A stretch of 64,000 nucleotides of DNA from contig CBDETK010000013.1 in the NCBI GenBank assembly GCA_965242865.1, forward strand, positions 3,008,001 to 3,072,000, given 5' to 3'. The stretch's first letter is position 1. Each line of letters starts with the position of its first letter. The stretch is from Candidatus Latescibacterota bacterium (GTDB lineage: Bacteria; Latescibacterota; UBA2968; UBA8231). Position numbers and translations under genes: made by a program. The notes below the pieces were generated by a model. It made no database searches, had not been told where the DNA came from, and saw nothing but the letters and a program-made list of their open reading frames with translations. Shown here in pieces: positions 6,681 through 43,961 of the stretch.

Positions 6681-6698
6681 AACCCGGAAAGGGCTTTT

Positions 6699-21456: not shown

Positions 21457-22686
21457 CTATCCCCCAAACACCTTCTTGACTTGGTGTAACGCCGCGACGA
21501 GGGCATCTATTTCCTCGTGCGTGTTGTAAAAAGCCAACGAGGCGCGCACCGTAGCCGGCACTTGGTAAAACTGCATGGTCGGCTGGGCGCAATGGTGGCC
21601 GGCGCGCACGGCAATGCCCTCGACGTCGAGGACGGTGCCGATGTCGTGCGGGTGAATGTCGTTGAGCACAAAGGACAAAACGGCCACGCGCTCGCGGGCC
21701 GTGCCAATCAGGCGCAGGCCCGGGACAGCGGCGAGGGCTGCGTCTGCGTACGCGAGCAAGTCGGCCTCGTACGCGGCGATCTGCTCCCGGCCTATGGCGT
21801 TGACGTAATCAATGGCGGCTTCCAAGCCAATGCCGCCGGCAATGTGCGGCGTACCGGCCTCAAACCGAGCCGGCGGAGCAGTATATGTGGTGCCGGCAAA
21901 GCTCACCTTCGCGATCATGGAGCCACCGCCTTCGTATGGCGGCATGGCGTTTAGCAGGGCCTGCTTGCCGTAGAGCACGCCAATGCCGGTGGGGCCGAAG
22001 AGCTTGTGGCCGGAAAAGGCGTAGAAGTCGCAGTCGAGGTCCTGCACATCCACCGGCAGGTGAGGCACTCCTTGCGCTCCATCGACGACGACGATGGCGC
22101 CGTGCTGATGGGCCAAGGCGGTGATTTCCTTTACCGGCAGGATGGTGCCGAGGGCGTTGGAAGCGTGGGCGACGGCCACGATGCGGGTGCGCTCGGACAG
22201 CAGCCGCTCGTATTCGTCGAAGAGGAACTCGCCGGTTGGGCTGATGGGCACGACCCGCAGGTGCGCGCCCTTTTCCTCGCCCAGCATTTGCCACGGCACA
22301 ATGTTGGAATGGTGCTCTAGCTGGGAGACGATGATCTCGTCGCCGGGGCCGAGCTGGGGCCGGCCGTAGCTGTGGGCGACGAGATTGATCGCCTCGGTGG
22401 TGCCGCGCACAAAAACGACTTCGCTGCTCTCGCGGGCATTGATAAACTGGCCGACTCGGCCGCGCGCACGCTCGTATGCAAAGGTCGCCTGCTGGCTGAG
22501 GAAGTGGACGCCGCGGTGGATATTGGCGTTTTCGCGGGCGTAGTAGCGCTGGAGCGCGTAGAGAACCGTCAGCGGCTTTTGGGTGGTCGCGCCGTTGTCG
22601 AAATAGACGAGGTTTTTGCCGCGGATTTTCTCGCCGAGTATTGGGAAGTCGCGGCGGACCTTGGCTACGTCAAAGGAAGCGGTCAT
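21457..22686 (-). CDS. sufS: Cysteine desulfurase
   Basis: DNGATTQKP, EHHSNIVPW, FSGHK, RAGHHCA. Confidence 0.97.
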   Translation of the reverse strand: MTASFDVAKVRRDFPILGEKIRGKNLVYFDNGATTQKPLTVLYALQRYYARENANIHRGVHFLSQQATFAYERARGRVGQFINARESSEVVFVRGTTEAINLVAHSYGRPQLGPGDEIIVSQLEHHSNIVPWQMLGEEKGAHLRVVPISPTGEFLFDEYERLLSERTRIVAVAHASNALGTILPVKEITALAHQHGAIVVVDGAQGVPHLPVDVQDLDCDFYAFSGHKLFGPTGIGVLYGKQALLNAMPPYEGGGSMIAKVSFAGTTYTAPPARFEAGTPHIAGGIGLEAAIDYVNAIGREQIAAYEADLLAYADAALAAVPGLRLIGTARERVAVLSFVLNDIHPHDIGTVLDVEGIAVRAGHHCAQPTMQFYQVPATVRASLAFYNTHEEIDALVAALHQVKKVFGG

Positions 22687-23966
22687 AGGGCTACTCCGGC
22701 CGCCGCTTGGTCCAGCCGACGATCTACGAGCTGGGTGAGCTCGGCTTTGAGAGCGGGGATGCGCACGCGGTCGAGGACTTCACCGGCAAAGGCGCGCGTC
22801 AGCACGCGGACGGCCTCGCGGTGGCTAATGCCGCGGGAGCGCAGGTAAAAGAGCGCGTCTGGGTCGAGTTGGCCGATGGTCGCGCCGTGCGAACACTTGA
22901 CGTCGTCCGCGTAGATTTCGAGTTGGGGCTTGGTGTTGATCTGCGCGGTCTCCGAGAGCAAGAGGTTTTGGTTGGCTTGGTAGGCGTCGGTTTTTTGCGC
23001 GGCTTGGTGAACGTGGATTTTGCCGCGGAAGACGCCGGTGGCTCGCCCGCCGAGGATGCCCTTGTAGAACTCATGGCTCTGGCAGTGCGGCTCGGCGTGT
23101 TCGATGAGCGTATGGTTATCGACGTGTTGGCCCCCGTCCTCGATGTAAAGGCCGTTGAGCGTGGAGTCAACGCCTTCGCCCACGAGAGCGGTGTGGACGT
23201 GGTGGCGGGTCAGGCGTCCTCCCAAGGTGATGGCCGTCGAGCGGAATTGGGCGGCGCGTTCCTCGCGCACGTGGGTCGCCGCGATGTGGTAAGCGGCGGC
23301 CGCCTCGCGCTGGATTCGGTAGTGGTCGATCACGGCGTTGGCCCCGACGAAAATTTCGCTGACGCTGTTGGTCAGGTACGGTTCCGACCCTAAGCCGACG
23401 TAGCTTTCGACGACGGTTGCTTGGGTGTTCGGCCCGGCGAGCACGAGGACGCGCGGATGGGAAACGACGTTGGCGCGTTGGCCGGTGGATACAAACAGCA
23501 AGTGGATGGGCTGCTCGACGACGGCGTCCGGGGGCAGATAGACGACCGCGCCGTCTTGCAAAAAGGCGGTGTTGAGCGCGGTAAACGCCTCGCCCTCGGT
23601 GGCCGCGACTTGGCCGAGGACCGCGGTGACGATGATGGCGCCGGCGACGATGCTCAAACGCTCGACGAACGCCCCGGTGGGCAGGCCGCTGAGTTGAGAC
23701 TGCGCGCCGGCGAAGTGCCCATCGACAAAGACCAGCCCATGGAGGCCATAGCGGTAATCTTCGACAGCGACAGGCGCGGTCGTGGACTCGGCCAGCTCGA
23801 AGTTGGTCCGAGTTAGCGGGGCGATGTTGGTAAAAGCCCAGTCCTCGTCTTGGGTCGTGGGAAAGCCCGCAGCCGCGAAGTGCTCAATGCCCCTTTGCCG
23901 CTGCTCCCGCAGTGCCTCAGTGCTGACCAAGTCGTTGAAGCGGGATTGGTAATAGGAGACGCTCAT
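22683..23966 (-). CDS. sufD: Fe-S cluster assembly protein SufD
   Basis: FPT..EDW.FT, KPQLEIYADDVKCSHGAT, FYLRSRGI. Confidence 0.96.
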   Translation of the reverse strand: MSVSYYQSRFNDLVSTEALREQRQRGIEHFAAAGFPTTQDEDWAFTNIAPLTRTNFELAESTTAPVAVEDYRYGLHGLVFVDGHFAGAQSQLSGLPTGAFVERLSIVAGAIIVTAVLGQVAATEGEAFTALNTAFLQDGAVVYLPPDAVVEQPIHLLFVSTGQRANVVSHPRVLVLAGPNTQATVVESYVGLGSEPYLTNSVSEIFVGANAVIDHYRIQREAAAAYHIAATHVREERAAQFRSTAITLGGRLTRHHVHTALVGEGVDSTLNGLYIEDGGQHVDNHTLIEHAEPHCQSHEFYKGILGGRATGVFRGKIHVHQAAQKTDAYQANQNLLLSETAQINTKPQLEIYADDVKCSHGATIGQLDPDALFYLRSRGISHREAVRVLTRAFAGEVLDRVRIPALKAELTQLVDRRLDQAAAGVAL

Positions 23967-24712
23967 TGGACAGCCTCCTTGACCCAGTCGTAGCCCTTTT
24001 CTTCTAGCGTCCGCGCCAGTTCCTTGCCACCGGACTCGACGATGCGTCCCTCGTAGAGCACGTGGACGAAGTCCGGGACTATGTAGTTGAGCAGGCGCTG
24101 ATAGTGGGTGACGACGACGACGGCTTTGTCTGGGGCGTGGAGTTTGTTGACGCCTTGGGCGACGATCCGCAGCGCGTCGATGTCGAGGCCGGAGTCGGTC
24201 TCGTCGAGGATCGACAGCTTGGGTTCCAACACGGCCATTTGCAAAATCTCGTGGCGCTTTTTCTCGCCGCCGGAAAAGCCTTCGTTGACCGACCGCTTGA
24301 GGAAGCTCTCGTCCATTTCCACCAAGGCGAGCCTTTCGCGGATTAGCCCGAGAAAGTCGATGGCGTCGAGCTCCTCCTCGCCGCGTTGCTGGCGGATTTC
24401 GTTGTAGCTTTGGCGGAGGAAGTACGTGGAGTTGACGCCGGGGATTTCCACTGGATACTGAAAGGCGAGGAACATTCCGGCGTGTGCCCGTTCTTCCGGC
24501 GCGAGTTCGAGCAGGTCTTGGCCGCAGTACGCAACCGCCCCTTCGGTGATGTCGTAGCCTTCCCTGCCGGCTAAGACTTGCGCGAGGGTGCTTTTGCCCG
24601 AGCCGTTAGGCCCCATGATGGCGTGGATTTCCCCGGGTTCTACTTTCAGATTGACGCCGCGCAGGATGGGGGTGTCTTCAACGGCGACGTGGAGGTTTTC
24701 GATGTGGAGCAT
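23963..24712 (-). CDS. sufC: Fe-S cluster assembly ATPase SufC
   Basis: GPNGSGKST, NEGFSGGEKKR, LDETDSGLDIDAL, THYQRLL; ATG at 24712. Confidence 0.97.
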   Translation of the reverse strand: MLHIENLHVAVEDTPILRGVNLKVEPGEIHAIMGPNGSGKSTLAQVLAGREGYDITEGAVAYCGQDLLELAPEERAHAGMFLAFQYPVEIPGVNSTYFLRQSYNEIRQQRGEEELDAIDFLGLIRERLALVEMDESFLKRSVNEGFSGGEKKRHEILQMAVLEPKLSILDETDSGLDIDALRIVAQGVNKLHAPDKAVVVVTHYQRLLNYIVPDFVHVLYEGRIVESGGKELARTLEEKGYDWVKEAVQ

Positions 24713-24750
24713 GACGTGCTTTCGGTTAGGGTTGTGTGGTATGGGTTCGT

Positions 24751-25233
24751 TTAGCCCTGCAATGCTTTGGTCAGCGGCGAGCCGCACCGCACCAGTTTAA
24801 TCGGCACTCGCTTCCTGCGAAAAACGACTTGATTGGCAGGTTTTAGAAAACCGTCGCGCTCAATGCGTTTAAGCTCGCCATTGTATGCGGCGATGGGGCG
24901 AAACCTGACTTGGACATCCTGCGGCAGCAGTTTATCCGCAATCTCGGCACCTGCGCGTAGTTGGGGCAGGAATTTGCTGACCCGAGCGGCACTTGCGGTC
25001 AATTCTACGGGTGCAACCCACGGCCCTTCTTTTTGGTCGCTACCTCCAACAAACAAATAGTCACAATGTGTCTGCCTTTCTTTAACCGGCGCGGCCTCGT
25101 GTTCCAAGCTGATTAGGACTGACGGCTTTGGCACTCCTCTCAGCGATAGGGAGCAACGGTCGTCGCGGCATGTTGTGGCGTGACATTGCGCGTTGGTTTT
25201 TGTTCGGACCGTTTCCACCACTGTCACTCGCAT
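24751..25233 (-). CDS. Hypothetical protein, possible PD-(D/E)XK nuclease-like partner of the upstream ATPase
   Basis: CDYL...VELT...Q motif pattern; TAATG coupling to the ATPase gene. Confidence 0.55.
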   Translation of the reverse strand: MRVTVVETVRTKTNAQCHATTCRDDRCSLSLRGVPKPSVLISLEHEAAPVKERQTHCDYLFVGGSDQKEGPWVAPVELTASAARVSKFLPQLRAGAEIADKLLPQDVQVRFRPIAAYNGELKRIERDGFLKPANQVVFRRKRVPIKLVRCGSPLTKALQG

Positions 25234-26771
25234 TATCCCCCCTCAATTCGAGTGGAAATTTCCGACCAGCGGTTATAGAGCGATTCCGTGACCAGCCCGA
25301 AGCCAGCCGGGAAAGTCGAGGACTCGGTATCGAGCGCAATTTCCCGCACTGTTGAGCCGTTTCCCTCTGAATTCGGCTCGAAAAACCACGCGCCTACTTG
25401 GTCGGGGCTGAGCACTACATCCTCGTCATCGATTCCCGTGCGTCGCTCCTTGGGCAGATCTGATAAGCGAACCAGATTGGCCAATTCTTCCAACACCCAC
25501 TCGCTGTGAGTGGTAATGAGGATGCGGACGCCTGCTTGTACTGCGGCCGCGAGCTGGCGAGTGAACTCCACCTGCATGGCCGGATGTAGGTGCGACTCAG
25601 GCTCTTCAATGATGAGCAGGTCGCCCGGCTGAACGACGTGGCGCAGGTACAGCACTACAGGTGCCAATTCCGACACCATGGATGACGCATTCATCAAGGG
25701 CAAATCTCGCTTCCAGTCATCCGGCCTATAGACAAACGAAGGGTAGTTGATCTGAGATTGTTCGACGCGGACAGCCCCCCGCAGAAGTGTCTGTTCCAAA
25801 TTCTGGGCGAGAGGATCGTAATCCTCATTCTGTGCCCGTCGCCGTGGCTCGGCCAATGCGACAAGCTGATCCAGAAAGTCGCCCAAAACCCCGGAAAGTA
25901 CGGGCATGGGCGAATCGCGTCGCAGTCCGGTACGCGAGGCACTTGCGATTAAGCCTCGCACGGCTACTTGATGCGCGTGCATGACACCAGCGCGGTCGGC
26001 GGGAAGGTAATATGCAGGATGACTCAAGGAAGCAACCATATTGGAAACAACGGCATTGGCAAGCCCGACCAACAATGCTTCAGCAACCCTCTCTTCGTCT
26101 AGCTCACTCTTGTTAATCCAGTCCTCGGGAGATAGTGTGCTATCTACTCTAATTTGCCGGGATAGGGTATTTGGAATCGAAGCAGCTATTTTAGTTCCAC
26201 TATTGGTCAACTTAACGTTGTTCGGAATCGAAGCAGTTATTTCAATCCCACTATTGGTCAACTCAACGTTGTAGCGAAATAGATCGTTGAGTCCAGATTC
26301 CGAGAAATTTCTCCAAAGGGAAAATAGGGTTTGACTATCACTCGAATGACGAATTAAGTCTTTGGATTTGTCCATCCCAAAGCATCTGACGAGTTCGCTC
26401 TCCAAAACGTCCCCCGAATGTTTGATATTGCGAAGAAGGAGAGAGCGTACCAACGTCTCAATAGACTCCGGCAGTTCAATTAGAGAAGACTGCTCGCGTT
26501 TTGCTCTTTGCAAGGTTGAATACGTTTCCCTTACCCAAGCTAAAGCGGTTGCAATATCTTTATTCGACAAATTGAGATTCATATCTTGCCAGTACCAATA
26601 AGAGTAGGCATTAAAAAACCTATGCAGTGCGTAAACAAGAGCCGCCATGTAGGACTTGCCCGTGTTACTCGGCCCCACGAATACGGACATTGGACGTAGT
26701 TCGATATTCGCCTCGGCGATGGGGCCGAAGTTAGAGACCGTTAGCTCAAGAGGCTTTGTGTTGGGTTGCAT
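25233..26771 (-). CDS. AAA_15/AAA_21 (ABC-type) ATPase
   Basis: NFGPI, GPSNTGKS, ASSMVSE signature, IIEEPESHLHP, TTHS; ATG at 26771. Confidence 0.88.
   Translation of the reverse strand: MQPNTKPLELTVSNFGPIAEANIELRPMSVFVGPSNTGKSYMAALVYALHRFFNAYSYWYWQDMNLNLSNKDIATALAWVRETYSTLQRAKREQSSLIELPESIETLVRSLLLRNIKHSGDVLESELVRCFGMDKSKDLIRHSSDSQTLFSLWRNFSESGLNDLFRYNVELTNSGIEITASIPNNVKLTNSGTKIAASIPNTLSRQIRVDSTLSPEDWINKSELDEERVAEALLVGLANAVVSNMVASLSHPAYYLPADRAGVMHAHQVAVRGLIASASRTGLRRDSPMPVLSGVLGDFLDQLVALAEPRRRAQNEDYDPLAQNLEQTLLRGAVRVEQSQINYPSFVYRPDDWKRDLPLMNASSMVSELAPVVLYLRHVVQPGDLLIIEEPESHLHPAMQVEFTRQLAAAVQAGVRILITTHSEWVLEELANLVRLSDLPKERRTGIDDEDVVLSPDQVGAWFFEPNSEGNGSTVREIALDTESSTFPAGFGLVTESLYNRWSEISTRIEGG
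26169..26270. repeat. 51 bp in-frame tandem duplication inside the ATPase gene
   Basis: Encodes NVELTNSGIEITASIPN / NVKLTNSGTKIAASIPN. Confidence 0.9.
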
Positions 26772-27924
26772 ACTCAAATACCTTTCGGTAAACAGTGCTT
26801 TCCATTCGACTGTGAATAAAGGTTTCGAGCGTCCCTGCCTTTTTTTGATCGCGCACTCGCCTCGCCTCAAAATTGAATGCGTATAGATTGTGGCAGGCCC
26901 GGCGATGAACGTGGTTTATTCCATCGCGGTCTTCAAGATAGTCTAAGTAAGAGAGCGCAGCGCGTTCATCACAAATTGACCAATCTGTCCCGTCGTCCCA
27001 GTCTTTGACAGCGAAGCTCTCTTCAGTCGTCAATCGCAGCATACGTTGAGCAAAGGCACGACGGCTTTGTTCATATTTGGCCGGGTCTTTTTCGGCTTCA
27101 CGGCGAGAAAAGCGGGTCAAGTGAACGCCGGGCAACTGCACTTGTTTGAAGGCCGCGCTCATAATCCAAGTCTGTGAATCGACGGTATCTGCGCCGCAGT
27201 AAAAGGCGAATAGCATCAGCAGGGCAGAACCCAAAGAGAAACAGTGAATGTGAGTGTTGGGGAGCAGTTTTCGTGCCGTGAGAATAACGTCAACCACTGT
27301 GCGTTTACTCCCATTGAGAGCAAGTGGTGCCAAACTTCCAATGCCGACGATGGCAGGCTCTCGACCCCATATTTCGACAATAGTATCTAAAGCACGCGAG
27401 AGTGTTTTTTCGTCATGGCCGTGAAGGACAGGGATGAGTGTTGGGCGAGGCGAGGCGTCGGACTCTTTTAATGCCTCAAACATTGTACGGGTGTTCTCCA
27501 CGGTATTCGACCAACGCACATCTATTTCTTTCGGATCAGATTTAGGCATGAAGGGATGGTCAAGCACAACCGACATATCAGCCCCTAACTCAATTCCAAT
27601 CGACAGGACGTCAAGAGGTGTAATACTGATTTCAGCATGTTGTAGAAAATTGAAGGCACCAGAATCGAGCATAAGTGGACCATCAAATTCGACGTACTCG
27701 TGCAGCTTGCCTTTCATATTGCGGATTTCTTCGGTAAACTTATGAGTTCGTCTATTAGCTAGCAGATCAAAGGCATTGAGCAGAATCGCTTGGGTATCGG
27801 TCATTTCCCATGGATGGCAACGTAGGCCAGCACGTGGATAGTCGTATATGCGATAGCTGGCAAACAGGTTCGGTGCCTCTAGGAAATCTGGCGAGACAGG
27901 GTTTTGTGTATCATTTTGATTCAT
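26746..27924 (-). CDS. tRNA-guanine transglycosylase (TGT)-like protein, aTGT/DpdA-like
   Basis: LMLDSGAF, VVLDHP, IPVLHG, GIGSLAPL, HIHCFSLG, ADTVDSQTW, HNL; no CxCxxC zinc motif. Confidence 0.85.
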   Translation of the reverse strand: MNQNDTQNPVSPDFLEAPNLFASYRIYDYPRAGLRCHPWEMTDTQAILLNAFDLLANRRTHKFTEEIRNMKGKLHEYVEFDGPLMLDSGAFNFLQHAEISITPLDVLSIGIELGADMSVVLDHPFMPKSDPKEIDVRWSNTVENTRTMFEALKESDASPRPTLIPVLHGHDEKTLSRALDTIVEIWGREPAIVGIGSLAPLALNGSKRTVVDVILTARKLLPNTHIHCFSLGSALLMLFAFYCGADTVDSQTWIMSAAFKQVQLPGVHLTRFSRREAEKDPAKYEQSRRAFAQRMLRLTTEESFAVKDWDDGTDWSICDERAALSYLDYLEDRDGINHVHRRACHNLYAFNFEARRVRDQKKAGTLETFIHSRMESTVYRKVFEYATQHKAS

Positions 27925-27927
27925 CAG

Positions 27928-29100
27928 CTAACCTTCTTCGACAATCTGCTTTATTCGTTCTTTCATGCGTGGTAGAAAATACCCCGGCAAAACATTGAGT
28001 TCTGCTTTCTCAACCTTTTCTTTTAATGAACCGTACTCCTCTTCAACAATTTGCTGTTCCAGAGGTTCTAAATGTTGGGGACGATCTTGTTGGGATTGCT
28101 TTTCATTTTCTTCGCGCTCTTTAAGATAGCGTTCATACTTGTCGCGTCCACTGTTCAAGTAGTCCGATACGTATTCAATGGCGAGGTCTTTATTCTCTAT
28201 AGGCTGGAGTTCCGCCGGCTTACCTAAGCGTCGTTCAATTGCAGGATATTGTGCTAGGTCTCTTGGGTCTGGAGTGGTTGCAACCACAAAGAAGACGGAT
28301 TCCGTTAGCATATCGAAAAGATGGCGCAAATCTTGCGCGTATCGAGATTGACGCGAACGATGTAGCCCTTCAAAAATCTCCTCAAACTCGTCGAACAGTA
28401 GAATGATGCCATCGCACAAGTCAAGCTCTTTTAGCACGGCGAGCAATCCATTTAAGAATCGCATGGCGAGTGAAGGGCTAGTAATATCGGAGATGGTGTT
28501 TTTTCCATCTTCGGTTAATCGTCTTTTGTCTGTTGCTGGAAGTTTTTGTCCTTTCAACCAGCGGATTAAGGTATCTTTATGCCGCTCACCATAAATGGTA
28601 AATAGACTATCGGGCTTAACTAGTGTTTTGATAACTACTAGGAGTTCGGATGCGGACCTAATTTTTTCCGAAAGAATATCAATTTCTTTTGGCTCTGATT
28701 TTAGCCGCTCAAACAGATCGCCTAAGAACAACTCAGACAGTCTATCAATAATTTGTCCATGAATATCGTAGTAACTCTCTCTAGGATCAGAGACATAGAT
28801 TGGATATAGGTTTTCAATAAGCTTATTTCGCCTAGCTTCGTCAGTCAGTTTTTCAAAGTACCGCAAGATATTTGTCTTGCCGGCACCATTTTCTCCGTTA
28901 ATACGCAATCGCTTGGCGTCTGTGGAAAAGTTCATCAAGGTGGAGACAAATTTATCTTTTAGCTCGTCTTGGTCCGTACAGACTTCAAATTTAGGGTCTC
29001 CATATCCAGGGAATGGATTTTCAAGGAGAAAATGCTTTTCGTATGGATTAAGTTCTTGGTGATCAACTTCAAACCGAGAAAGATCTTTCGTCAGTGTCAT
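27928..29100 (-). CDS. P-loop ATPase (AAA+/ExeA-like N-terminus)
   Basis: Y....L.ENPFP, GENGAGKT, IILLFDEFE; ATGA overlap with the upstream gene. Confidence 0.8.
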   Translation of the reverse strand: MTLTKDLSRFEVDHQELNPYEKHFLLENPFPGYGDPKFEVCTDQDELKDKFVSTLMNFSTDAKRLRINGENGAGKTNILRYFEKLTDEARRNKLIENLYPIYVSDPRESYYDIHGQIIDRLSELFLGDLFERLKSEPKEIDILSEKIRSASELLVVIKTLVKPDSLFTIYGERHKDTLIRWLKGQKLPATDKRRLTEDGKNTISDITSPSLAMRFLNGLLAVLKELDLCDGIILLFDEFEEIFEGLHRSRQSRYAQDLRHLFDMLTESVFFVVATTPDPRDLAQYPAIERRLGKPAELQPIENKDLAIEYVSDYLNSGRDKYERYLKEREENEKQSQQDRPQHLEPLEQQIVEEEYGSLKEKVEKAELNVLPGYFLPRMKERIKQIVEEG

Positions 29101-30017
29101 TTTGCTATCTCCCATCGAATTAGTTTGACCAGTTTGCCGTTCACTCGCATCCCATCCTCCAAATAGCGGCGTTCAAGCCATTCTGGAGACGATGCTTTAT
29201 CTGGCAGCAATTCAGTAGAAAGCCGTTCGCTAAGAATCTCTTTCCTTGGCCGTATTGAGGTGATTTGTAGATTCCCAGAAACTTCTCGTCGAATCGTCGC
29301 GGGTGCGAGTCTAATTTCGCCTAGATAGGTTTTTACAAACTCGTTCATCTTCATCTCAAAAGCCTGAAAAGAGATACTCAGTTCCTTACAAACAGTATGC
29401 GCTAAAATACCCAAGTTCGCATAACCAGATGTTTTCTCTGTCTGGCAATAACTCTCCCGGCAAACTGTTTTGAAGCATTCCAACAAGGGCATCTCTTCAT
29501 CCCACTCTCCGCCCCAATAGATAACTTCTTCAAAAGGCGAACGGTATGCGTGTCCTACGGATACTGCCCATCTCCAAAACGTATCAAGGGCAACGAAGGT
29601 GATATTATATTTCTGTTTTAATCTATGCCCTAAATTCCTGCGAGCCTCCTTATCCTGACGCTGGGGAATTTCAATCTCTCTTTCGTGCTCCAGACAGTTG
29701 AGGAACCGCGCATAAGGTGGATAATTTTTCAATCCTTGATTCATCGACAATAAATAGTCTCCAGAGTTCCAAGCGCGAATAAAATTATGGAAATCCTCGG
29801 TTAAACACAATATATCCTGATTTTGCTTACTTTGAACTAACCAGTTCGATGCTTCAAAGACGCGCAGGATGTCTCTCACTCGTCGTGCGAGGCGTTTTAT
29901 GTTTCCCTGACTCTCAATAATTCTGTGGAATGTGTTCAGTGAGAGTCGGCTTTCGACACGGTGAGTCTCAATAGCGTCGGCAACAGACAGCAATTTATTT
30001 ATAGTAATCGGGTCCAA
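29097..30017 (-). CDS. Hypothetical protein, possible winged-helix DNA-binding
   Basis: 306 aa ORF with TTG start, tightly coupled to its neighbours. The N-terminal RRVRDILRVFEASNWL..LCLTE looks wHTH-like (weak). Confidence 0.65.
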   Translation of the reverse strand: MDPITINKLLSVADAIETHRVESRLSLNTFHRIIESQGNIKRLARRVRDILRVFEASNWLVQSKQNQDILCLTEDFHNFIRAWNSGDYLLSMNQGLKNYPPYARFLNCLEHEREIEIPQRQDKEARRNLGHRLKQKYNITFVALDTFWRWAVSVGHAYRSPFEEVIYWGGEWDEEMPLLECFKTVCRESYCQTEKTSGYANLGILAHTVCKELSISFQAFEMKMNEFVKTYLGEIRLAPATIRREVSGNLQITSIRPRKEILSERLSTELLPDKASSPEWLERRYLEDGMRVNGKLVKLIRWEIAK

Positions 30018-30020
30018 TCC

Positions 30021-31103
30021 TCAGAACTCCCGTATTTCCATCACGTCGTAAGCAAAGAATCCTCCACGCGCTTGTGAATAGTAAACGAGTTCATATTTGC
30101 GTTTTTTATTCTCAAGACGAATCGTACTGAAGACCTGAGCCAAATCCCACAGTAGATAATGTACAGGCGTCAGGACCACCCTGCTGTTATGAGAGTAGTA
30201 TCGAATAGATCTAAGCTTTGAAGGTAGTGATGGAACGCCGATGTGAAGACTTCCTTGGTTCTCTAAGGTCGCAAGTGAAGCCATATCCTTGTCCCCAGTG
30301 ATAAGATAGGATCCTTGGATCAACTCCCGGTCTCGCTTGAGGGTCTTCAGACTTTCGATAATCAGTCGGTCAATGTTTGAGTTACCATTGGACTGACCTA
30401 GGTGTTCAGAGAGGGTCGTTAGCATCTCTACGGGTCGCCACTGGCGGATATGATTCAATTCTCGGCTAATGACTGAGACCTGTGGACGCTTCTCGAGTAC
30501 GTCACATTTCCCAAGGTGAGGCTTCTTACCGCTGTCCGTTTCTCTCCATATCTTATTCAATTCGCTTACCTGTCGTTGCACTTCGATCATGACGAAAACC
30601 GGGACGACGGTCCAAATTAGCACGTTGGATAGGGTTTTGTGCAAGAAAGAGATCACTGCCCGGCGCAAGGCACTTGTGTCAGCGACAAGTATTAAATAAC
30701 CATGCTCTGAGAGTTTTTTCATCACTTTCCGAAACTCCATCTCGACGCCTTGATCTTTCATTAGGCAAAATTCCGGGCGTAGAAGTCCAGTCCGTACCAT
30801 GCTATCGGCGAGTTGATCGAGTATGATTGTTTGTGCTCGATTCGCTTGTTTTTGTTCATCTTTTTTCTTTTCAGCCAACTTAGAGAAACGACTTTTGATT
30901 TTTTTATTTGACACAGGCGAAAAAGTAAAAGGTAAAATCGGATAGCGTCGTACAATTTCCTCATCTGCATCAATTGTAATATCGCCAAGTTTCACATATT
31001 CTTTTTCAGGCAGGTGTGTACCATCTGTGTAAGAAACTTTCCATTCACCCCAGAGTGGGTATCTGGCAATGAATTCGTCTAAATTGAGTGATCGGCTATC
31101 CAT
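30021..31103 (-). CDS. PIN-like domain protein
   Basis: ILVADTSAL, VVPVFVMIEV, DRLII, LITGDKDM: the acidic tetrad of PIN nucleases. Confidence 0.7.
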   Translation of the reverse strand: MDSRSLNLDEFIARYPLWGEWKVSYTDGTHLPEKEYVKLGDITIDADEEIVRRYPILPFTFSPVSNKKIKSRFSKLAEKKKDEQKQANRAQTIILDQLADSMVRTGLLRPEFCLMKDQGVEMEFRKVMKKLSEHGYLILVADTSALRRAVISFLHKTLSNVLIWTVVPVFVMIEVQRQVSELNKIWRETDSGKKPHLGKCDVLEKRPQVSVISRELNHIRQWRPVEMLTTLSEHLGQSNGNSNIDRLIIESLKTLKRDRELIQGSYLITGDKDMASLATLENQGSLHIGVPSLPSKLRSIRYYSHNSRVVLTPVHYLLWDLAQVFSTIRLENKKRKYELVYYSQARGGFFAYDVMEIREF

Positions 31104-31509
31104 CAGTGATTCTCACTTCGTATTTAGAATGCGGGAAATGATTCTGCAAAATTTCTGTTACGACAGCGGATAGTACCGTGCTTGATTTCAACTTCAACAT
31201 GAAAACTCCTTCAGATCCCTCTTCCGAGTCCATTTGCGACTTTAGTTGGTCAAAAACTTTCTCTTTTAGCGAAGTTGGCAAATAAAAATCGACCTCTCTT
31301 TCATCCGAGACAGGTTCTTGGGTTTCAGGGTCCACCGAATCTAGTGTTGCCACGGTATCTGAAAGACAATCCAAATTAATCGTAACCTTGTTTTGCTCTT
31401 TCCATTCCTGAAAGTCAAGCATAGATAAATCAGGCACGGAGTAGGTCGCAATGGGGTCCTGTTTCGAGCATTCAATAAATTCAAAAATTTCAATAATTTC
31501 CAGTTTCAT
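31096..31509 (-). CDS. Hypothetical acidic protein
   Basis: ATG at 31509, overlapping both neighbours. Confidence 0.6.
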   Translation of the reverse strand: MKLEIIEIFEFIECSKQDPIATYSVPDLSMLDFQEWKEQNKVTINLDCLSDTVATLDSVDPETQEPVSDEREVDFYLPTSLKEKVFDQLKSQMDSEEGSEGVFMLKLKSSTVLSAVVTEILQNHFPHSKYEVRITDG

Positions 31510-31981
31510 CGAAGTTCCTTTCGTCAAGAGCGTAGGGATCTTCTCCCCACAGCCATTTTTTAAGTTGCGTCTGCCTTTTACCCATCGGGCCGTAAGCAAC
31601 AATTGCTTCCCTATGGGCTTGCAAGCCCTCAAGTGCCTTCAGATAGGCTTTACCCAGTACAAAACAGACTGAAATGTAGTTGTCGCGTCGAATATCTGAA
31701 AATACTGTGGCGATTTGAGGCCGTAATTCTGCGATACGCGATGTATTCAGCTTGCGGTCGTACAATGCGGTTGAGAAATCGCCCGGAATAAGCCCATAGG
31801 CTGCGGATAAGATATATACATCAAGCAGCCTTGCTTGACGGGGACGTTCGCGAAGGAAACGACGTAATACGAAGAATAACGGGCCGTTGTATCTATCAAT
31901 CGCCGGTAATGGCTCGTGTGAAGCGCGTTTGCGTTGCGAGCACGATAGGATAAGTAAGCGTCGTTTTCCATTCATGGTCAT
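31490..31981 (-). CDS. YaaA/DUF6884-like protein (DpdC-like fold)
   Basis: LLILSCSQRK, PAIDRYNGPLF, YILSAAYGLI, YD..L, LGKAY; start at 31981 or 31975. Confidence 0.75.
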   Translation of the reverse strand: MTMNGKRRLLILSCSQRKRASHEPLPAIDRYNGPLFFVLRRFLRERPRQARLLDVYILSAAYGLIPGDFSTALYDRKLNTSRIAELRPQIATVFSDIRRDNYISVCFVLGKAYLKALEGLQAHREAIVAYGPMGKRQTQLKKWLWGEDPYALDERNFDETGNY

Positions 31982-32000
31982 TCTACAGATGCAATTTCCG

Positions 32001-32372
32001 CTACCGTAAGTTGCGGTTGGTTTCGGGTTGCCAAGCGCGGATGATCGCGGCCTCCAGCTCGCGAGTCTCCTCTTCACTCTCGGTGAATGTTACTGAGAAT
32101 TTTACTAGATCGGGGAACATGCGGAGTTGGCGTCGGAGTTTGGGATTGGTCTCGTTTGCCAAGTGCTCCAGCAAGCGGCGGCGGACGCAAGTTGCGGACA
32201 TGCCGATGTAGAGCCGTTCGGGGGCACTTTCTCCGGGCAGCCACAGGGCGTATAGGCCGCAACAGTCCTTTGGTAGCGTTTGCACCTCCTCTCGGTTGAA
32301 TGGGCGCAAGTTGTTTTCTAGCTGATACTTCTTGGCGAACAAATTATTGGAACGGCAGATCACCTTGTGCAT
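32001..32372 (-). CDS. GIY-YIG nuclease
   Basis: GLYAL..LYIGMS..VRRRLLEH..ELEA.II..QP..N; start uncertain. Confidence 0.8.
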   Translation of the reverse strand: MHKVICRSNNLFAKKYQLENNLRPFNREEVQTLPKDCCGLYALWLPGESAPERLYIGMSATCVRRRLLEHLANETNPKLRRQLRMFPDLVKFSVTFTESEEETRELEAAIIRAWQPETNRNLR

Positions 32373-35169
32373 CTTCTTTCATCCTTGAGAGGGCAGAAAG
32401 GACGTTTTGCCACTCGGTGACGAGGTTGTTGAAGACGACCGCGTTTTGTGCGTCGCCTTTGCGGTCGTAGTGGTTGTAGAGAATGCGCGCCAAGCGCTCG
32501 ACGGATTCGACGTTGCCATTCATTTCCCGCGCCACCACACCCGCACCCTCGATCCCTCGGCCTTCCTCGTGGTTTAGGTGGTACGCCATGCGGAAGCATC
32601 CTTCCCACGCGGTTCCATTGCCGAGGGTCAGTGGGCGGCTGTCGCCAAATTCATCGAGCGGCAACAGCTTTACCCGGCCCCCTTCGGCCGTGAGTAGGCC
32701 GTCCAAATTTTGCAGTTTGCTGATGGCTACGTTTTTGGCGCGGGATAGCGTCTCGGCCTCGCCGTACTGGCCTTCTTCGTAATCGTGCTGTTTGAGCCAG
32801 TCGAGGCAGAAGCGGCTCTCTGCATCCAAATCGCCTTCCTGTCGCTCGTCGTAATCGGCGATGGCTCGGTTAATGGCCGCTAGGGCCTCGCGCACTGGCA
32901 CTGGCTCGCCGCTGATGGTCTCGACCCGTGCGTAGCGCGAGTAGATTTGCATTCCGGGGCCGATGGCGGCTTGTGCTAGATCGGTTGGGGCAATGTGTCT
33001 TTGTTGCGTGAGTTGGTCGAGGGCTTCGGGCAGTTCTTTCGCCAGCGCGTCAAAGAATTGGCGGCGCGTGGCAATGGGCGCATCCTTAGAGCGTGGACGG
33101 CAGACGAGGACGACGGACGAGGCGAGGGCGTTGGTATTCATCGCATTGGATCGGTTTCCCATCTCAGTTCGCATGGGCCAAGTGCCGATCATTTCAAAAC
33201 CAGCCGAGACAATGGCGGATAGCATGGTTTCCCAGCCGGTGGAGGCTCTGCCTGCGCGTTCCTCCTCCTGCTGTTTGTAGGCGTAGAAAATGGACGATGG
33301 GAACTCAGCCGAGCAGCGTTCCCGTATCAACCGCAACGTCTTACTTAGCTGTTGCTCAAATTGTTGGCTGTAATTTTCAAAACGGAATCGATTGGCAACC
33401 ATTTCTTCGCTTTTGGGGGTCAGTATGCCAGCAAACATATCGGGGTAGGCGTTGCGGAGTAGCGGGCGCAGCCAGACATAGAAAAAGTCGGATGAATCGG
33501 CGTAGTGGATGTTATCGTAGTAGGGGGGATCGGTGACGATGACGGGACCGTTTTGCGCGTGAATGGTGGTAGATGCGTCGGCTTGGTGTGCTTCTCCGTC
33601 GTTCGCATCGGCGGGAAGGCGGTCGACGGCTTTAGCTATCCACTCGATTTGGCCCGTCCAGTTCTGCGTTGAAGTCGAGAAGATATTCGCTTCGGCAAAA
33701 TCCCAAACCATCCCAATCCCTTGACGCGAGAAAACCCCTTCAACCTTTTCCCCGGAATTGTGCCAGTGGGTGAAACTGCAACCACTGTTTGCAGTCCTAC
33801 CAAGGGCAAGCGCAAGATACGTGCAGATCGCATCGGCGTATTCTCCTTCCACCTCATCCTGTTTGATTTGATTACGAACCTCTCCCAGCAAGTCGCTGAA
33901 TGTAGTCAGCGCGGTTAGCTGGCGTTCCGTGAAAAGCTGGTGCCACTGTGTAAACCCATAAATTTGTACACTAATGCTTCTTGCTTGTTCAGGCAGGCTG
34001 CCACTAGGCCGCCAAGCAGGGGTAGCTTTCTGTGCAACCTTGATATGCTCGTCCACCGGCGAAAGAAACAGTCGCTTGCGGCTCCCCTCGGCGACAATCG
34101 CCGTCATAACCTCCCCTATGTTGCCCGCTCGCCCTTGCTCGCGCACATAAGGCAACTTCACCACACTGCCGCAGCCGAGACAGGTCGCGCCGTTGCGGTT
34201 CACCGTGCCGCTTTCGGGAACGTCGGCGTTGTGGTTCTGTACCACAAAGGCGATGCTGTTTCTCTCGCGATCAATGACGGGCCTAGTCCAATGTTCGTTG
34301 CCTTTCTTCTTCGACAATTGAAACGTGGCCATCAGCGGCATGGCAATGCGACACGCCGGATTCGGACAGGGCACAGTCCGCGCCCACAGCCACGCGATTA
34401 CAGTAGCATTCGTTCCGTCGGACAATCTCACCTGCGGATACAAATGCCCGATCCGCTTGAACGCCTCCTCGCGCATCCAGCGACCATAGTAACGGATGTC
34501 GTCGGCCAACCCCGCCGCACCGCGCCACGGAACGCGCCGCTTCCTGCCCTTGCCCACGGTCATACCCATCCGATCCGCATCCGGGTTGACCGGAGGTTGG
34601 CCGCTGAATTTCGGCGGCAGTTCGATCAACGCCTTGTTAATGAGCACCGCCACCGGGTTGAGATCAGAGGCGACCGCTCGCAGCCCAAGTCGTTGCGCTT
34701 CGAGCGGTATGGAGCCGCCGCCCGCAAAGGGGTCGTAGATCGGACGGACCTTGTCGTTGAGATAGCGCAGCACTTCCGCCGGATCGGTGGGCGCAGTTTC
34801 GCCGCGGGTACGCGCCACCGAGCGAGCAATTTCGTATCGCGCTTCCGCCAAGCGTTCCCTACCTGCAGTCTTACTTTCGTCGGTGCTCTCCCACTTAACA
34901 AGCTCCCGGATGATGCCATGCAGCCGCTCGCGCTCGGCCCGTTGGGCCTCCTCCGTAGGAAACTCGTCAGAACAATCGGCCGGGTCGTCCACCATGCTAG
35001 CAAAAATGACGGCGCGACAAGCCGCCAGCGGACGCCGCGCCCACCACAAATGCAGCGTCGAAGGATGGCCGTGCCGAATGGATTTCTCGCGGGCGGACTC
35101 GTGGTTGATGACGTCAAGAGGCAAGTCCACCTCAATGAGCTTGCGACGATATGGGGTTTGAGCGGTCAT
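32344..35169 (-). CDS. DUF1156 adenine-specific DNA methyltransferase
   Basis: LHLWWARRPLAACRA, DPFAGGGSIP (SAM-binding), TDPPYYD catalytic motif. Confidence 0.92.
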   Translation of the reverse strand: MTAQTPYRRKLIEVDLPLDVINHESAREKSIRHGHPSTLHLWWARRPLAACRAVIFASMVDDPADCSDEFPTEEAQRAERERLHGIIRELVKWESTDESKTAGRERLAEARYEIARSVARTRGETAPTDPAEVLRYLNDKVRPIYDPFAGGGSIPLEAQRLGLRAVASDLNPVAVLINKALIELPPKFSGQPPVNPDADRMGMTVGKGRKRRVPWRGAAGLADDIRYYGRWMREEAFKRIGHLYPQVRLSDGTNATVIAWLWARTVPCPNPACRIAMPLMATFQLSKKKGNEHWTRPVIDRERNSIAFVVQNHNADVPESGTVNRNGATCLGCGSVVKLPYVREQGRAGNIGEVMTAIVAEGSRKRLFLSPVDEHIKVAQKATPAWRPSGSLPEQARSISVQIYGFTQWHQLFTERQLTALTTFSDLLGEVRNQIKQDEVEGEYADAICTYLALALGRTANSGCSFTHWHNSGEKVEGVFSRQGIGMVWDFAEANIFSTSTQNWTGQIEWIAKAVDRLPADANDGEAHQADASTTIHAQNGPVIVTDPPYYDNIHYADSSDFFYVWLRPLLRNAYPDMFAGILTPKSEEMVANRFRFENYSQQFEQQLSKTLRLIRERCSAEFPSSIFYAYKQQEEERAGRASTGWETMLSAIVSAGFEMIGTWPMRTEMGNRSNAMNTNALASSVVLVCRPRSKDAPIATRRQFFDALAKELPEALDQLTQQRHIAPTDLAQAAIGPGMQIYSRYARVETISGEPVPVREALAAINRAIADYDERQEGDLDAESRFCLDWLKQHDYEEGQYGEAETLSRAKNVAISKLQNLDGLLTAEGGRVKLLPLDEFGDSRPLTLGNGTAWEGCFRMAYHLNHEEGRGIEGAGVVAREMNGNVESVERLARILYNHYDRKGDAQNAVVFNNLVTEWQNVLSALSRMKEDAQGDLPFQ

Positions 35170-35200
35170 ATCAGCTTATTTTGCCGCTGGTCTAACTGAA

Positions 35201-36172
35201 TTAGTTCGGTTGGTTAGGGCTACCAAGATCCATCTGAGCCGTTTGTGGAGGGGGGGAAGGGACATGCTGCTTGATAAACGCCCGACCAGTATAGTTTTCA
35301 ACGATCTTTATCGCAGCAGTCCCGGTAAACGTATGAGTAGCTGCATGAAATACCGATAGACTGAGGTCTTGTAACATATTATCATCTTCAAGCGCAGTCA
35401 CCTTCAGTTGGTTCTCCAAGAGATCTTTTCGTGATATGTGCCGGCCATGGCTCTTGAAATTCTTGTGGTTGGCAAGCCATTTAGAGATTGACGATGCCTG
35501 CTTCGAGCGGTCGGGACAGTTTTTGAACATGTAGGTTTCCAGCCATGTCTTTACGAGTTCCTTAGACAACTTCAACGCTTCTTCACACTGCACCAAGAGA
35601 TCGGGACCGTATTGGTTCAACATTGGCAGCCAAGCCGATAGTTTTGCCGGATCAGAGCATTCTCGCTGGGCTCTGTCGAACTGATCTAAAACGGCCTGTG
35701 CTGGGACGAATCGTGCTCCTAGAGGAGTAGTGAGCGGAATCTGCGGGTCGGTTGGTCCAAGAAAAGAATGCTTGCCCAGCACAATCTCATCAGCGGCACA
35801 TGAAATCATAGTCGCCGCCGACATTGCAAGGTGAGGAACGATTACTCGGATATGAGAGAATCGAGACCTTAGATAAGAGACTATAGCCTCGGCCGCTTCA
35901 GGAGAGCCCCCAGGGCTATGTAGAATCAGGTCGAGGGCACCGCTTAGTCCCCACGTTACTTCCATGAGGGCGTGAACATCCTCGTCGCTGATCGAAATAG
36001 AAGCCGCCGGCACTTCCTTCTGAATCCATCCCGAGGCATACAGGATAACATTACGTCCAGTGTGCCGGTGGAGTTGCAGGAGATATTTTCTTCGAATGCC
36101 GTCAAAATCGGGGGCGGCATCCTGTCGGCTGGGCGCAGCAAGTTCAGCTAGAATTTCACTCCATATTGGCAT
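35201..36172 (-). CDS. SDH-family Clp-fold serine protease
   Basis: LILHSPGG, AMSAAT, LGPTDPQ, SHGRHI. Confidence 0.85.
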   Translation of the reverse strand: MPIWSEILAELAAPSRQDAAPDFDGIRRKYLLQLHRHTGRNVILYASGWIQKEVPAASISISDEDVHALMEVTWGLSGALDLILHSPGGSPEAAEAIVSYLRSRFSHIRVIVPHLAMSAATMISCAADEIVLGKHSFLGPTDPQIPLTTPLGARFVPAQAVLDQFDRAQRECSDPAKLSAWLPMLNQYGPDLLVQCEEALKLSKELVKTWLETYMFKNCPDRSKQASSISKWLANHKNFKSHGRHISRKDLLENQLKVTALEDDNMLQDLSLSVFHAATHTFTGTAAIKIVENYTGRAFIKQHVPSPPPQTAQMDLGSPNQPN

Positions 36173-36196
36173 GGATAGGCCCTTCCTTATACAGGC

Positions 36197-36406
36197 TTAC
36201 CGGGCGTTAGCATGGTCCGTCGTTATTACAACTTCCGGGTGTTTGGTTGCAAGACGGTACGGTTCGAGGCCCTTATCCGCCTTCTGGTAATTTTGGTAAA
36301 CCTGCATAACTTCCCGGACACCTGGACGGGCTAGTGCCTCCTTTAGCATAGCAGCATGTTCTTGCTCACGGTTGGAACCTTGAGGCTTTGCTGTGTGTTT
36401 AGCCAT
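36197..36406 (-). CDS. Small hypothetical protein upstream of the Clp-fold protease
   Basis: 69 aa ORF with an AAGGAG RBS. Confidence 0.65.
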   Translation of the reverse strand: MAKHTAKPQGSNREQEHAAMLKEALARPGVREVMQVYQNYQKADKGLEPYRLATKHPEVVITTDHANAR

Positions 36407-36451
36407 AGAGAATCTCCTTTTGAGTTGGGTCAGTATTCGCTATCTCGCTTC

Positions 36452-36674
36452 CTAAACGTTGGGCTCTGCCTTGTTTAGGTTCATTTCTTTAGCCCAGCGC
36501 AGATCGTGGCCGACTCCGCGCAGACGAGAGACGATGTGTCCCGATATATTTTCGTCGGCCAGTATCCTCATGGTCTTTCGCCGTTTTGCCAGATCATCTT
36601 GTATCGGCCACCTATTGCGGCGTCGAGTTCCTCCGAACTGATCTTACCCGCTCTATATATTGGGCCATGTCCAT
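36452..36674 (-). pseudogene. Decayed DUF433/DUF5615(PIN-like) toxin-antitoxin pair
   Basis: 36571-36452 reads MRILADENISGHIVSRLRGVGHDLRW then stops at 39 aa. Upstream fragments MDMAQYIER and SEELDAAI, in different frames, resemble DUF433. Confidence 0.65.
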
Positions 36675-36686
36675 AGTTTCCTCTGT

Positions 36687-37271
36687 TTACTTGTACAATA
36701 CAGCACAGCATTTTTTGTATTTTTCCCCACTGCCGCAAATACACGGATCATTTCTGCCGATTTTCTCTAAGTCTTGTCTGTATTCTGCAAAGCCTTTTCC
36801 ACCATGTGAGTATTCGCCACATGGTGGTATTTTTCTGTATTTATCAAAATATGCTTGCCAAACAAAGTAGGGATAAACTTTATTAAGGACGAATTTTCGT
36901 AGCGTTATATTGGTATTGAAATCTATGCCCAAGCAACAGCTATTATTACTTGGGTAAATATGTAAATCTATGATTGGTTTTCCAATTTCCGCTGCTAGCT
37001 TTTCTATTCTTCCTCCAGTTTCAAATACTTTTGGCCATTCGCTTTGGGTATCATTGAGAAGGATTTTAATTTCGTAACAATCGCGTAGGCAGTCGCTACC
37101 AGATGAACAAGGGATGATTTCCCAAATATCCTCTCCTTTCTTTTTTGACTGTTTTTGATAGCGAGCACTAAAATTCAATTCACCCCTGATACAGTTCTCC
37201 TTCTCATCGTAATAAAGATTTGGGAAATATTTTTGAATCTCTGTGAATTCTTCTAGAGTATATTCAATCAT
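36687..37271 (-). CDS. Prokaryotic E2-like protein with C-terminal SEC-C motif (CBASS ancillary)
   Basis: [10 protein letters not shown]...HIY....CCLG E2-like motif; [22 protein letters not shown] motif; overlaps the cyclase stop. Confidence 0.75.
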
Positions 37272-39143: not shown

Positions 39144-39154
39144 AGCTTACCTCT

Positions 39155-42100: not shown

Positions 42101-42497
42101 GGCGATGAGAAACAGGTGGGTTCGGACGAACTCGGCCTCTAGGTCTTGGGGGCCGGGATGAGCCGCCTTGTCGCGGGCTTCCTTTATCAGCCATAGCGCG
42201 TTCTGGACCCCCCGCTCGTCGCCAAAGGGCTGTTGGAAGAGGCCGCTCCACTTTCTGCTGATGAGGTGGGGAAAGTCGCCAATGTCTATGGAGGCCGCTG
42301 CATCGCGCCCGTTCTTGCTCAGGTTGAGGCTGAACTGCTCGGCCTGTCTGTGATTTAGCCCCTCGCGGATCACCTCTTCAACCTGCTGGCCCCGCACCTT
42401 CTTTAGCGAGCGGACAATAAACGGGCGCATGGCGTCGCGGTAGATGTCTAGCCCCTTGTTGAGCGCGTCCCTGTTGGGGCGGTCTATCGTCGTATTC

Positions 42498-42508
<11 letters not shown>
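39155..42508 (-). CDS. DUF499 AAA+ ATPase with N-terminal Swt1/HEPN-like domain
   Basis: [43 protein letters not shown]; N-terminal RDKAAH motif. GTG start lies inside the sufB 3' end. Confidence 0.9.

Positions 42509-43961
<1,453 letters not shown>

Follow-up and report, generated by a model that had tools for sequence, protein, structure and literature searches.

The window analysed here, a stretch of 64,000 nucleotides from the genome of a Candidatus Latescibacterota bacterium (assembly GCA_965242865.1, contig CBDETK010000013.1, positions 3,008,001 to 3,072,000), contains a six-gene operon, which we interpret as a compact form of the Dpd 7-deazaguanine restriction-modification system, one that does without DpdB and has a new set of accessory genes. 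The chance that this reading is right seems to us about even. The Dpd system of Salmonella Montevideo combines modification by DpdA, DpdB and DpdC with restriction by DpdD to DpdK (PMC10164549). The operon occupies positions 26746–31981 of the minus strand, which are filled exactly by six co-oriented open reading frames (ORFs), 5.2 kb in total. In the order of transcription, the genes and the predicted nature of their products are as follows (pI, isoelectric point; TGT, tRNA-guanine transglycosylase):

G1, 31490–31981, minus strand: DUF6884/DpdC-family (YaaA-like) protein, 163 amino acids, pI 9.9
G2, 31096–31509, minus strand: small acidic protein of no known family, 137 amino acids, pI 4.3
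G3, 30021–31103, minus strand: PIN-domain nuclease, beta-rich in its N-terminal part and ending in a C-terminal beta domain, 360 amino acids
G4, 29097–30017, minus strand: protein of three tandem winged-helix domains, 306 amino acids
G5, 27928–29115, minus strand: ORC/Cdc6-type AAA+ ATPase, related to BrxD, 395 amino acids
G6, 26746–27924, minus strand: divergent TGT-fold base-exchange enzyme, 392 amino acids

The genes are tightly packed: G1 and G2 overlap by 20 nucleotides, G2 and G3 by 8 and G4 and G5 by 19, and gaps of 3 nucleotides separate G3 from G4 and G5 from G6. These coordinates and this gene list are exactly those of a first-pass annotation made from the bare DNA, and its domain guesses agree with the Pfam, orthologue and structure searches reported below.

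G6 passes the Pfam TGT family PF01702 with an E-value of 1.3e-22 and 80.8 bits, the gathering score being 26.3. It stays below the cut-offs for archaeal TgtA (TIGR00432, 79.8 bits against 350), for bacterial Tgt (TIGR00430, 26.7 bits against 306.75) and for the TGT (Cap10) of the cyclic-oligonucleotide-based anti-phage signalling system (CBASS) in PADLOC (11.8 bits, E 0.025). Its sequence contains the motifs LDSGAF at residue 86, VLDHP at 120, PVLHG at 165, GSLAPL at 196 and VDSQ at 248, in which the DSG, DS, PVLHG and GSLAPL elements picked out by the first-pass annotation can be recognised. All 17 sequences compared share residues D87, D122, H168 and D249. When aligned with the motifs of the archaeal enzyme arcTGT and of DpdA, D87, D122 and H168 fall on DpdA residues Asp95, Asp130 and His181, and D249 on the nucleophilic aspartate of arcTGT and DpdA, so that the active-site residues of the Dpd transglycosylase are present in G6; at the position of H168, arcTGT has a glutamine. 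In DpdA, Asp95 acts as general acid/base, Asp130 and His181 read the base and Asp256 is the nucleophile (PMC10164549). A housekeeping Tgt is encoded separately in the host genome (548 bits on PF01702), and G6 is a paralogue. In our TGT tree, a quick search with long branches that contains no arcTGT, Cap10 or phage DpdA references, G6 lies apart both from the host Tgt and from the DpdA clade. By these comparisons, G6 represents a separate clade with a distant relationship to DpdA, and we predict that it is a DNA-guanine transglycosylase that inserts the queuosine precursor preQ0.

G1 passes the Pfam family DUF6884 (PF21818) with an E-value of 1.4e-10, and its orthologues in the related loci L034 and L012 match the DpdC model of PADLOC (3e-11 and 1.1e-4, respectively). 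It carries CxxxK and LSAxxG, the motifs named for the YaaA-like DUF6884 family (PMC11701544); CxxxK is found in 40 of 40 orthologues and LS[AG]xxG in 32 of the 40. Since DpdC itself is a DUF6884 protein (PMC11888242), the TGT and G1 can be read as a DpdA/DpdC-like modification pair. By analogy with DpdC, G1 is predicted to act on the inserted 7-deazaguanine and to convert its nitrile to an amide. G1 also matches PDC-M57A of PADLOC (1.7e-9), the only part of the PDC-M57 candidate to be matched, as G2 to G6 match no other PDC-M57 model. The untested candidates of PADLOC are described in a preprint (10.1101/2024.01.29.577857), and a literature search found no paper naming PDC-M57.

The host genome contains a second, Dpd-like locus (C13:783882–785600; L022:7882–9600, minus strand), where a DUF6884 domain and a canonical DpdA (PADLOC DpdA, 330 bits) are fused in a single protein of 572 amino acids. 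This fusion of the same two activities supports the idea that G1 and G6 share a substrate. Its neighbours differ from those of G6 and encode a 967-residue methyltransferase-like protein, a UvrD/GajB-like helicase and a Cas4-like PD-(D/E)XK nuclease.

Relatives of the operon were assembled into a set of 59 loci, 13 from a scan of one genome per species and 46 from a metagenome scan. The 13 genome loci come from metagenome-assembled genomes of Latescibacterota, Poribacteria, Chloroflexota, Acidobacteriota and Oligoflexia. A DUF6884 gene is found alongside the TGT gene in 42 of the 59 (41 by tblastn and L034 by Pfam), and 12 of the 17 loci without one have less than 4 kb of sequence upstream of the TGT. 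The complete PIN, winged-helix and AAA+ set stands beside the TGT in 23 loci, here called type A, and part of it in four more, which are cut by contig ends; conservation of the neighbourhood was one of the checks proposed in the first-pass annotation. Type A loci occur in metagenome-assembled genomes of Latescibacterota, Poribacteria, Chloroflexota and Acidobacteriota and in metagenomes, with differing flanks. The gene order is conserved far beyond chance, since other phyla have it too, amid different flanking genes; the flanks seen in the window, hmaB and a GIY-YIG nuclease gene, are shared by L006 and L023 only. In one type A-like locus (L002:4358–9197), the TGT is 80% identical to that of the window and the PIN, winged-helix and AAA+ proteins are only about 30% identical, which suggests recombination within the operon.

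Other partners accompany the core pair in the sister loci. A HerA ATPase with a partner of about 620 residues (p627) is encoded in 25 of the 59 loci, eight of them also of type A, with the HerA-p627 pair directly downstream. In L043, the pair lies at 4230–7949; the HerA ATPase scores 332 bits with the PADLOC HerA model; p627 has no Pfam match at E ≤ 0.001 and no PDB sequence match with a nine-sequence profile. In nine loci, the partners are a DEAD helicase-DUF1998-PLD protein of about 1800 residues (PADLOC DruE 446 bits, DpdJ 128 bits) and a protein of 426 residues. The locus types are interleaved on the TGT tree, L012 for instance standing beside L043 with a support of 99, so that accessory modules have been exchanged around a stable core of TGT and DUF6884. 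The replacement of the PIN set by HerA and p627, or by the DruE/DpdJ-like helicase-DUF1998-PLD protein, argues for DNA rather than tRNA as the substrate.

Such exchange would also fit two units that travel together, namely a restriction-free epigenetic pair of TGT and DUF6884, perhaps with G4 and G5, and a separate toxin-antitoxin-like or abortive-infection module formed by G2 and the PIN protein G3. Effector modules around the core have been swapped repeatedly, haloarchaeal plasmids keep the TGT with G4-like and G5-like genes and no PIN gene, and the small acidic gene overlapping the PIN gene recalls the layout of VapB-VapC, VapC being among the structural matches of G3. We hold this arrangement to be unlikely. 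G2 to G5 are enclosed by G1 and G6, which interleaves the pair with the PIN set in one overlapping operon; G3, G4 and G5 are found together in all 23 complete type A loci, with partial triads only at the four contig ends; and G2 matches no DNA-binding antitoxin family.

G4 has no family match in Pfam, PADLOC, NCBIfam or PHROGs, and none of its 179 homologues is named. Its AlphaFold 2 (AF2) model (predicted local distance difference test, pLDDT, 90.1; predicted template modelling score, pTM, 0.87) is made up of three winged helices in tandem. The Foldseek matches are weak (best E-value 4.5e-3) and all of them are multi-winged-helix proteins, for example UFL1/DDRGK1, Dcc1, the FokI recognition domain and MukE/F. 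With VIA, 50 of the 50 matches among those listed have winged helices, with Z-scores of 6.7–8.7. G4 is predicted to bind DNA as a partner of both the ATPase and the TGT. An identity of G4 as a DpdG-like protein was considered and dropped: its sole pointer is an ESM Atlas lead of 0.81, below trust level, and G4 has no PADLOC DpdG match at E ≤ 0.1.

G5 passes the Pfam family BrxC_BrxD (PF10923) with 31 bits, the cut-off being 22.2, and matches PADLOC BrxD in part (1.1e-7); its partial match to the BrxD equivalog model NF033438 reaches 30 bits, against a cut-off of 350. A scan of the neighbours gave no PglZ, PglX or BrxC. All 16 aligned orthologues share the Walker A motif GxxGxGKT (G74, G77, G79, K80 and T81), the Walker B residues D242 and E243, and R264, R295 and R296.

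Homologues of the TGT, G4 and G5 also lie next to each other on haloarchaeal plasmids, in clusters that are uncharacterised as far as we could find. In all three examined (L069, L072 and L073), a small TGT is followed by a G4-like and then a G5-like gene, with QueD, QueE or a queuosine-precursor transporter adjoining the cluster. The likeness of the winged-helix protein was compared for L069 only, where a hypothetical protein of about 295 residues aligns with the G4 profile (hhalign probability 85.7%, E-value 5.4e-6, 218 columns); in the same cluster, the protein labelled as BREX ATP-binding is related to G5 (BLASTP E-value 2e-16 over 328 residues). The plasmid clusters differ from the operon in their gene order and in having neither a PIN nor an acidic gene. 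A second, large TGT is encoded upstream in two of the three (L072 and L073), and in L069 an EVE-domain gene and a PD-(D/E)XK nuclease gene are nearby.

Because these plasmids keep the TGT with G4-like and G5-like genes and without a PIN gene, G4 and G5 are better read as partners of the TGT, and as older companions of it than the PIN nuclease. The first-pass annotation had grouped them with the PIN protein as an effector complex; the PIN protein keeps its place as the predicted effector, and the ATPase and winged-helix protein are moved to the side of the TGT. DpdA requires the DpdB ATPase to insert preQ0 (PMC10164549), and from this requirement and the haloarchaeal companionship we infer that G4 and G5 do the work of DpdB here. 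By this analogy, G5 is predicted to be a motor that helps the TGT to reach the base in duplex DNA, as a functional stand-in for DpdB, or else a sensor.

The sequence of G3 itself has no Pfam match; orthologues match PIN_4 (PF13638) at 4.3e-9 and 2e-4. The AF2 model (pLDDT 84.7) is matched to PIN domains by Foldseek with probability 1.00 (5f4h, 3ix7, 9jxx and SMG6) and by VIA with Z-scores of 7–12 (10.2 for 3i8o). The top VIA match is chain C of 9jxx, residues 150–398 of SiRe_0806, with a Z-score of 12.3 and an r.m.s.d. of 4.2 for 231 residues aligned over residues 1–360 of the model. All 15 sequences compared have D142, E174, D245 and D271, so that the PIN fold comes with a conserved set of acidic residues. 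G3 is predicted to be the effector of the operon. In two loci (L003:4166–5036 and L008:4261–5664), an insertion interrupts the PIN gene; it contains an ORF of 263 (L003) or 439 (L008) amino acids and may be a mobile element.

G2 matches nothing in Pfam, PADLOC, NCBIfam or PHROGs. The slot between the DUF6884 and PIN genes holds an acidic ORF in 16 of the 16 type A loci checked, with pI values of 4.3–5.2 and lengths of 111–188 amino acids, and these proteins form a weak but alignable family with a mean column identity of 29%. A possible role for G2 is that of a regulator or inhibitor of the PIN nuclease.

The PIN neighbours bring in an RNA-directed alternative, in which the TGT would modify tRNA or some other RNA and the PIN protein, as an RNase, would break down RNA upon infection, leading to abortive infection. 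The structural neighbours are RNases, the top whole-protein match is the cA4-binding SiRe_0806, and archaeal tRNA transglycosylases are the top sequence matches of the TGT: in a PDB profile search, arcTGT (1iq8) is found with an E-value of 3.2e-17 and DpdA (7ui4) with one of only 0.095. However, the arcTGT match is limited to the catalytic barrel, the C-terminal part of the 582-residue arcTGT chain having no counterpart in the 392 residues of G6. The genome already has a full Tgt, the partners in the sister loci are DNA motors and DNA nucleases, and DpdC acts on DNA (PMC10164549). An RNA target for the whole operon is, in our judgement, improbable, and the Dpd-like reading, with DNA as substrate, is preferred.

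Judged by its genes, the host makes preQ0. Its genome has two matches to QueC, of which one (TIGR00364, 163 bits) lies 3 kb ahead of the window; a QueE-like gene adjoins this QueC, 3–4 kb outside the window start (86.5 bits, below the model cut-off), and QueD is also encoded. These are among the genes that the first-pass annotation had proposed to look for in the rest of the genome. In the relatives, the link to preQ0 is direct, as QPTR or QueC/QueE genes lie within the operon. QPTR/Vut_1 (PF02592), a known preQ0/preQ1 transporter family (PMC11130926; PMC5372724), is encoded in 15 of the 59 loci, type A included, and mostly directly upstream of DUF6884. QueC is present in two (L034 and L062), and L034 has a row of QueC, a QueE-like radical SAM gene, a 123-residue ORF, DUF6884 and TGT. 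Neither Vut_1 nor a DndB/DpdB-like gene was found in the host genome, which is 93.6% complete. DpdB, a ParB/DndB-like ATPase, had no match among the window proteins scanned (10, then 26), and PF14072 had none in that whole genome.

These preQ0 genes also bear on a modification-dependent, type IV-like defence, in which the TGT would exchange or remove the 7-deazaguanines of phage DNA and the DUF6884 and PIN proteins would process the damaged site. TGTs exchange bases reversibly, by way of a covalent intermediate (PMC10164549), phages escape restriction with dPreQ0 and dADG (PMC6884629), and the DUF6884 member YfjM is reported to be one of the proteins that bind abasic and RNA-base lesions (PMC11701544). 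Excision of modified phage bases by the TGT, an option the first-pass annotation had kept open, is a poor fit for operons in which preQ0 is imported or made (QPTR in 15 and QueC in 2 of the 59 loci), since these suggest that the free base is consumed, that is, inserted. The fusion of a DUF6884 domain with a true DpdA in the host also speaks for insertion. We doubt strongly that the type IV-like scheme applies, and return to a Dpd-like operon that modifies the DNA of its own cell.

For this operon, we propose the following course of events. The QueC/QueD/QueE pathway of the host would provide preQ0, which G6 would exchange for guanine in the DNA of the cell. In this exchange, D87 would serve as the general acid/base and D249 as the nucleophile, and the base would be read by D122 and H168. 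G4, by binding DNA, and G5, as AAA+ ATPase, would give the TGT ATP-driven access to the base, the task of DpdB for DpdA. G1 would then turn the inserted nitrile base into the amide (dADG) or a related derivative. Nucleic acid without the mark would be attacked by G3, the acidic site of which is intact, and G2 may restrain G3. The operon itself would have been acquired horizontally and become lodged in a defence island. A more specific form of this proposal is put forward tentatively, as it probably claims too much: that a TGT, a triple winged-helix protein and an ORC/Cdc6-type AAA+ ATPase together form a DpdB-independent, ATP-driven guanine exchanger for duplex DNA, shared by bacteria and haloarchaeal plasmids, and that the coupled PIN nuclease restricts DNA without the 7-deazaguanine mark, which would make the six genes a self-contained system and the first with a PIN restriction enzyme.

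To our knowledge, Dpd is the largest restriction-modification system known, and the reason for its many parts is not understood. A six-gene relative of 5.2 kb is small enough to be expressed whole in a laboratory strain. It bears on what a DNA transglycosylase minimally needs in order to reach a base in duplex DNA and on how marked and unmarked DNA are told apart. It also bears on whether 7-deazaguanine marking extends beyond what the DpdA models suggest, for instance to sponge-associated phyla, soil phyla and haloarchaeal plasmids. This TGT clade escapes the defence-finder models now in use.

Several observations weigh against the reading of the operon as a Dpd variant. The closest sequence match of G6 is a tRNA enzyme, arcTGT; its scores with DpdA are low (20.9 bits on NF041059, where the cut-off is 200, and 16.3 bits, E 7.9e-4, with PADLOC), and it has no CxCxxC zinc site in its sequence, an absence noted in the first-pass annotation. 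The TGT tree, as built, offers a limited set of references for placing it. G1 reaches no DpdC model of PADLOC (E ≤ 0.1) or NCBIfam. The operon of the window itself includes neither a transporter nor a que gene, and L002 has the TGT and the triad with neither DUF6884 nor the acidic gene within 8 kb on either side. The sister loci of types B and C are without G4 and G5, so the TGT has no strict need of them, and the fold matches of G4 are middling (Z below 9), of a kind common for single winged helices, and support the fold only. A PIN nuclease would be an unusual choice of restriction enzyme, and the structural neighbours of G3 are mostly RNases or RNA-decay factors (SMG6, Nmd4, Rrp44, VapC and Utp24).

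When the operon is compared with known systems, the likeness to Dpd lies in the pairing of a TGT-fold enzyme with a DUF6884/DpdC-family protein, in the same three active-site aspartates plus the histidine of DpdA, in preQ0 drawn from the queuosine pathway or, in relatives, in a QPTR gene beside the others, and in the tie to ATPases and nucleases in defence islands, with DpdJ/DruE-like helicase-PLD proteins in sister loci. Unlike Dpd, it has a TGT of a separate clade that lacks CxCxxC, and no DpdB. None of the DpdD-K restriction genes (SNF2 and DEAD helicases, PLD and others) was found in the operon or its scanned neighbours; instead there are the PIN nuclease, the triple winged-helix protein, the ORC/Cdc6-type AAA+ ATPase and the small acidic protein. 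The BRC system with TGT/GNAT (PMC12839542) is similar in that a TGT has been recruited to a defence based on an ORC/Cdc6-type ATPase, and HerA appears in loci related to our operon. BRC is defined by PglZ, DUF6079, STAND NTPase, DUF4007 and HerA, and its authors report no DpdC homologue (PMC12839542), whereas our operon has a DpdC-family gene. None of the BRC components (HerA/FtsK, PglZ, DUF6079, STAND NTPase, DUF4007) is among the six genes or the scanned neighbours. Type IV CBASS, with the Cap10 TGT and the Cap9 QueC, shares a TGT-fold protein in a defence context; our operon contains no QueC-like gene or cyclase, and the CBASS nearby is a separate one of the E2/phospholipase type. No system model of PADLOC 2.0.0 matches the six-gene set, the individual matches being G1 to PDC-M57A, G5 to BrxD in part and G6 to DpdA with 16 bits, and a literature search found no paper describing it. 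The earlier proposal of a compact new system thus holds as far as a conserved unit outside existing models is concerned; by the sequences of its core pair, which is DpdA/DpdC-like, the operon is not a wholly new kind of system.

The operon is a low-GC insert, with a guanine-plus-cytosine (GC) content of 43–47% compared with about 58–64% a few kb away. It is flanked by HmaB and a PD-T4-4_A-like ATPase, with the CBASS close by (PADLOC, window proteins), and thus lies inside a defence island, as first proposed. TGT relatives occur in 6 of 61 related genomes, that of the window (G000) included, one of them as a 67-residue remnant only. Among 1.84 billion cluster representatives, there are 27 matches at E ≤ 1e-30, 195 at 1e-10 and 519 at 1e-3, and near-identical copies of the operon are found in different phyla. 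None of 152 candidate viral stretches encodes a relative, and the only phage records are Sulfolobus virus TGTs, 24–27% identical. The rarity, the patchiness and the differing flanks point to a rare, horizontally moving cassette. They also make it very hard to credit that the genes form a housekeeping queuosine-salvage cluster with no role in defence, although TGT, QPTR and QueC do belong to queuosine-pathway families: against salvage stand the low GC content, the patchy occurrence and the copies across phyla, and also the embedding among Hma genes, CBASS and an AAA_15 system, the nuclease, helicase and HerA partners in relatives and the separate housekeeping Tgt.

The defence island (about 24751–42508) sits within a suf operon on the same strand, and the genes at its ends overlap suf genes. 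The other features of this region are:

42498–43961: sufB, one flank of the island
39155–42508: HmaC, with an N-terminal HEPN_Swt1 domain
38214–39143: phospholipase of a very low-GC CBASS located between HmaC and HmaB
37264–38217: cyclase of the same CBASS
36687–37322: E2 protein of the same CBASS
35201–36172: SDH-type serine protease, after the CBASS
32344–35169: HmaB
23963–24787: sufC, on the other flank of the island
22683–23966: sufD, same flank
21457–22686: sufS, same flank

None of the ORFs scanned proved to be an HmaA helicase. The PADLOC matches to mad3 and SspA/DndA downstream are the SufC and SufS of the suf operon and not defence genes. A GIY-YIG nuclease gene (32001–32372, 123 amino acids) overlaps the end of hmaB and stops 19 nucleotides before G1; it was rejected as a part of the module, since it occurs, together with HmaB, in the closest relatives L006 and L023 and in no other locus seen. 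Rfam gave no family, hence no preQ1 riboswitch, in window positions 24000–36000 at E ≤ 0.1, and none at gathering scores in 11 related loci (L038 and L044 left out). The stretch, or part of it, is contained in 22 sequencing runs, with no RNA run among those listed.

After the TGT gene, positions 24751–26771 encode an AAA_15 ATPase (PADLOC PD-T4-4_A, 1.3e-36) and a 160-residue protein with no family match, probably a separate two-gene system. In L006, ORFs equal in length to suf genes of the window (274 and 427 amino acids) come after the island. Outside the island proper, positions 10059–13295 encode a 1078-residue AAA_11/AAA_12 helicase with a C-terminal REase_MTES_1575/DUF559 nuclease domain, which matches MkoC and MkoA of PADLOC.

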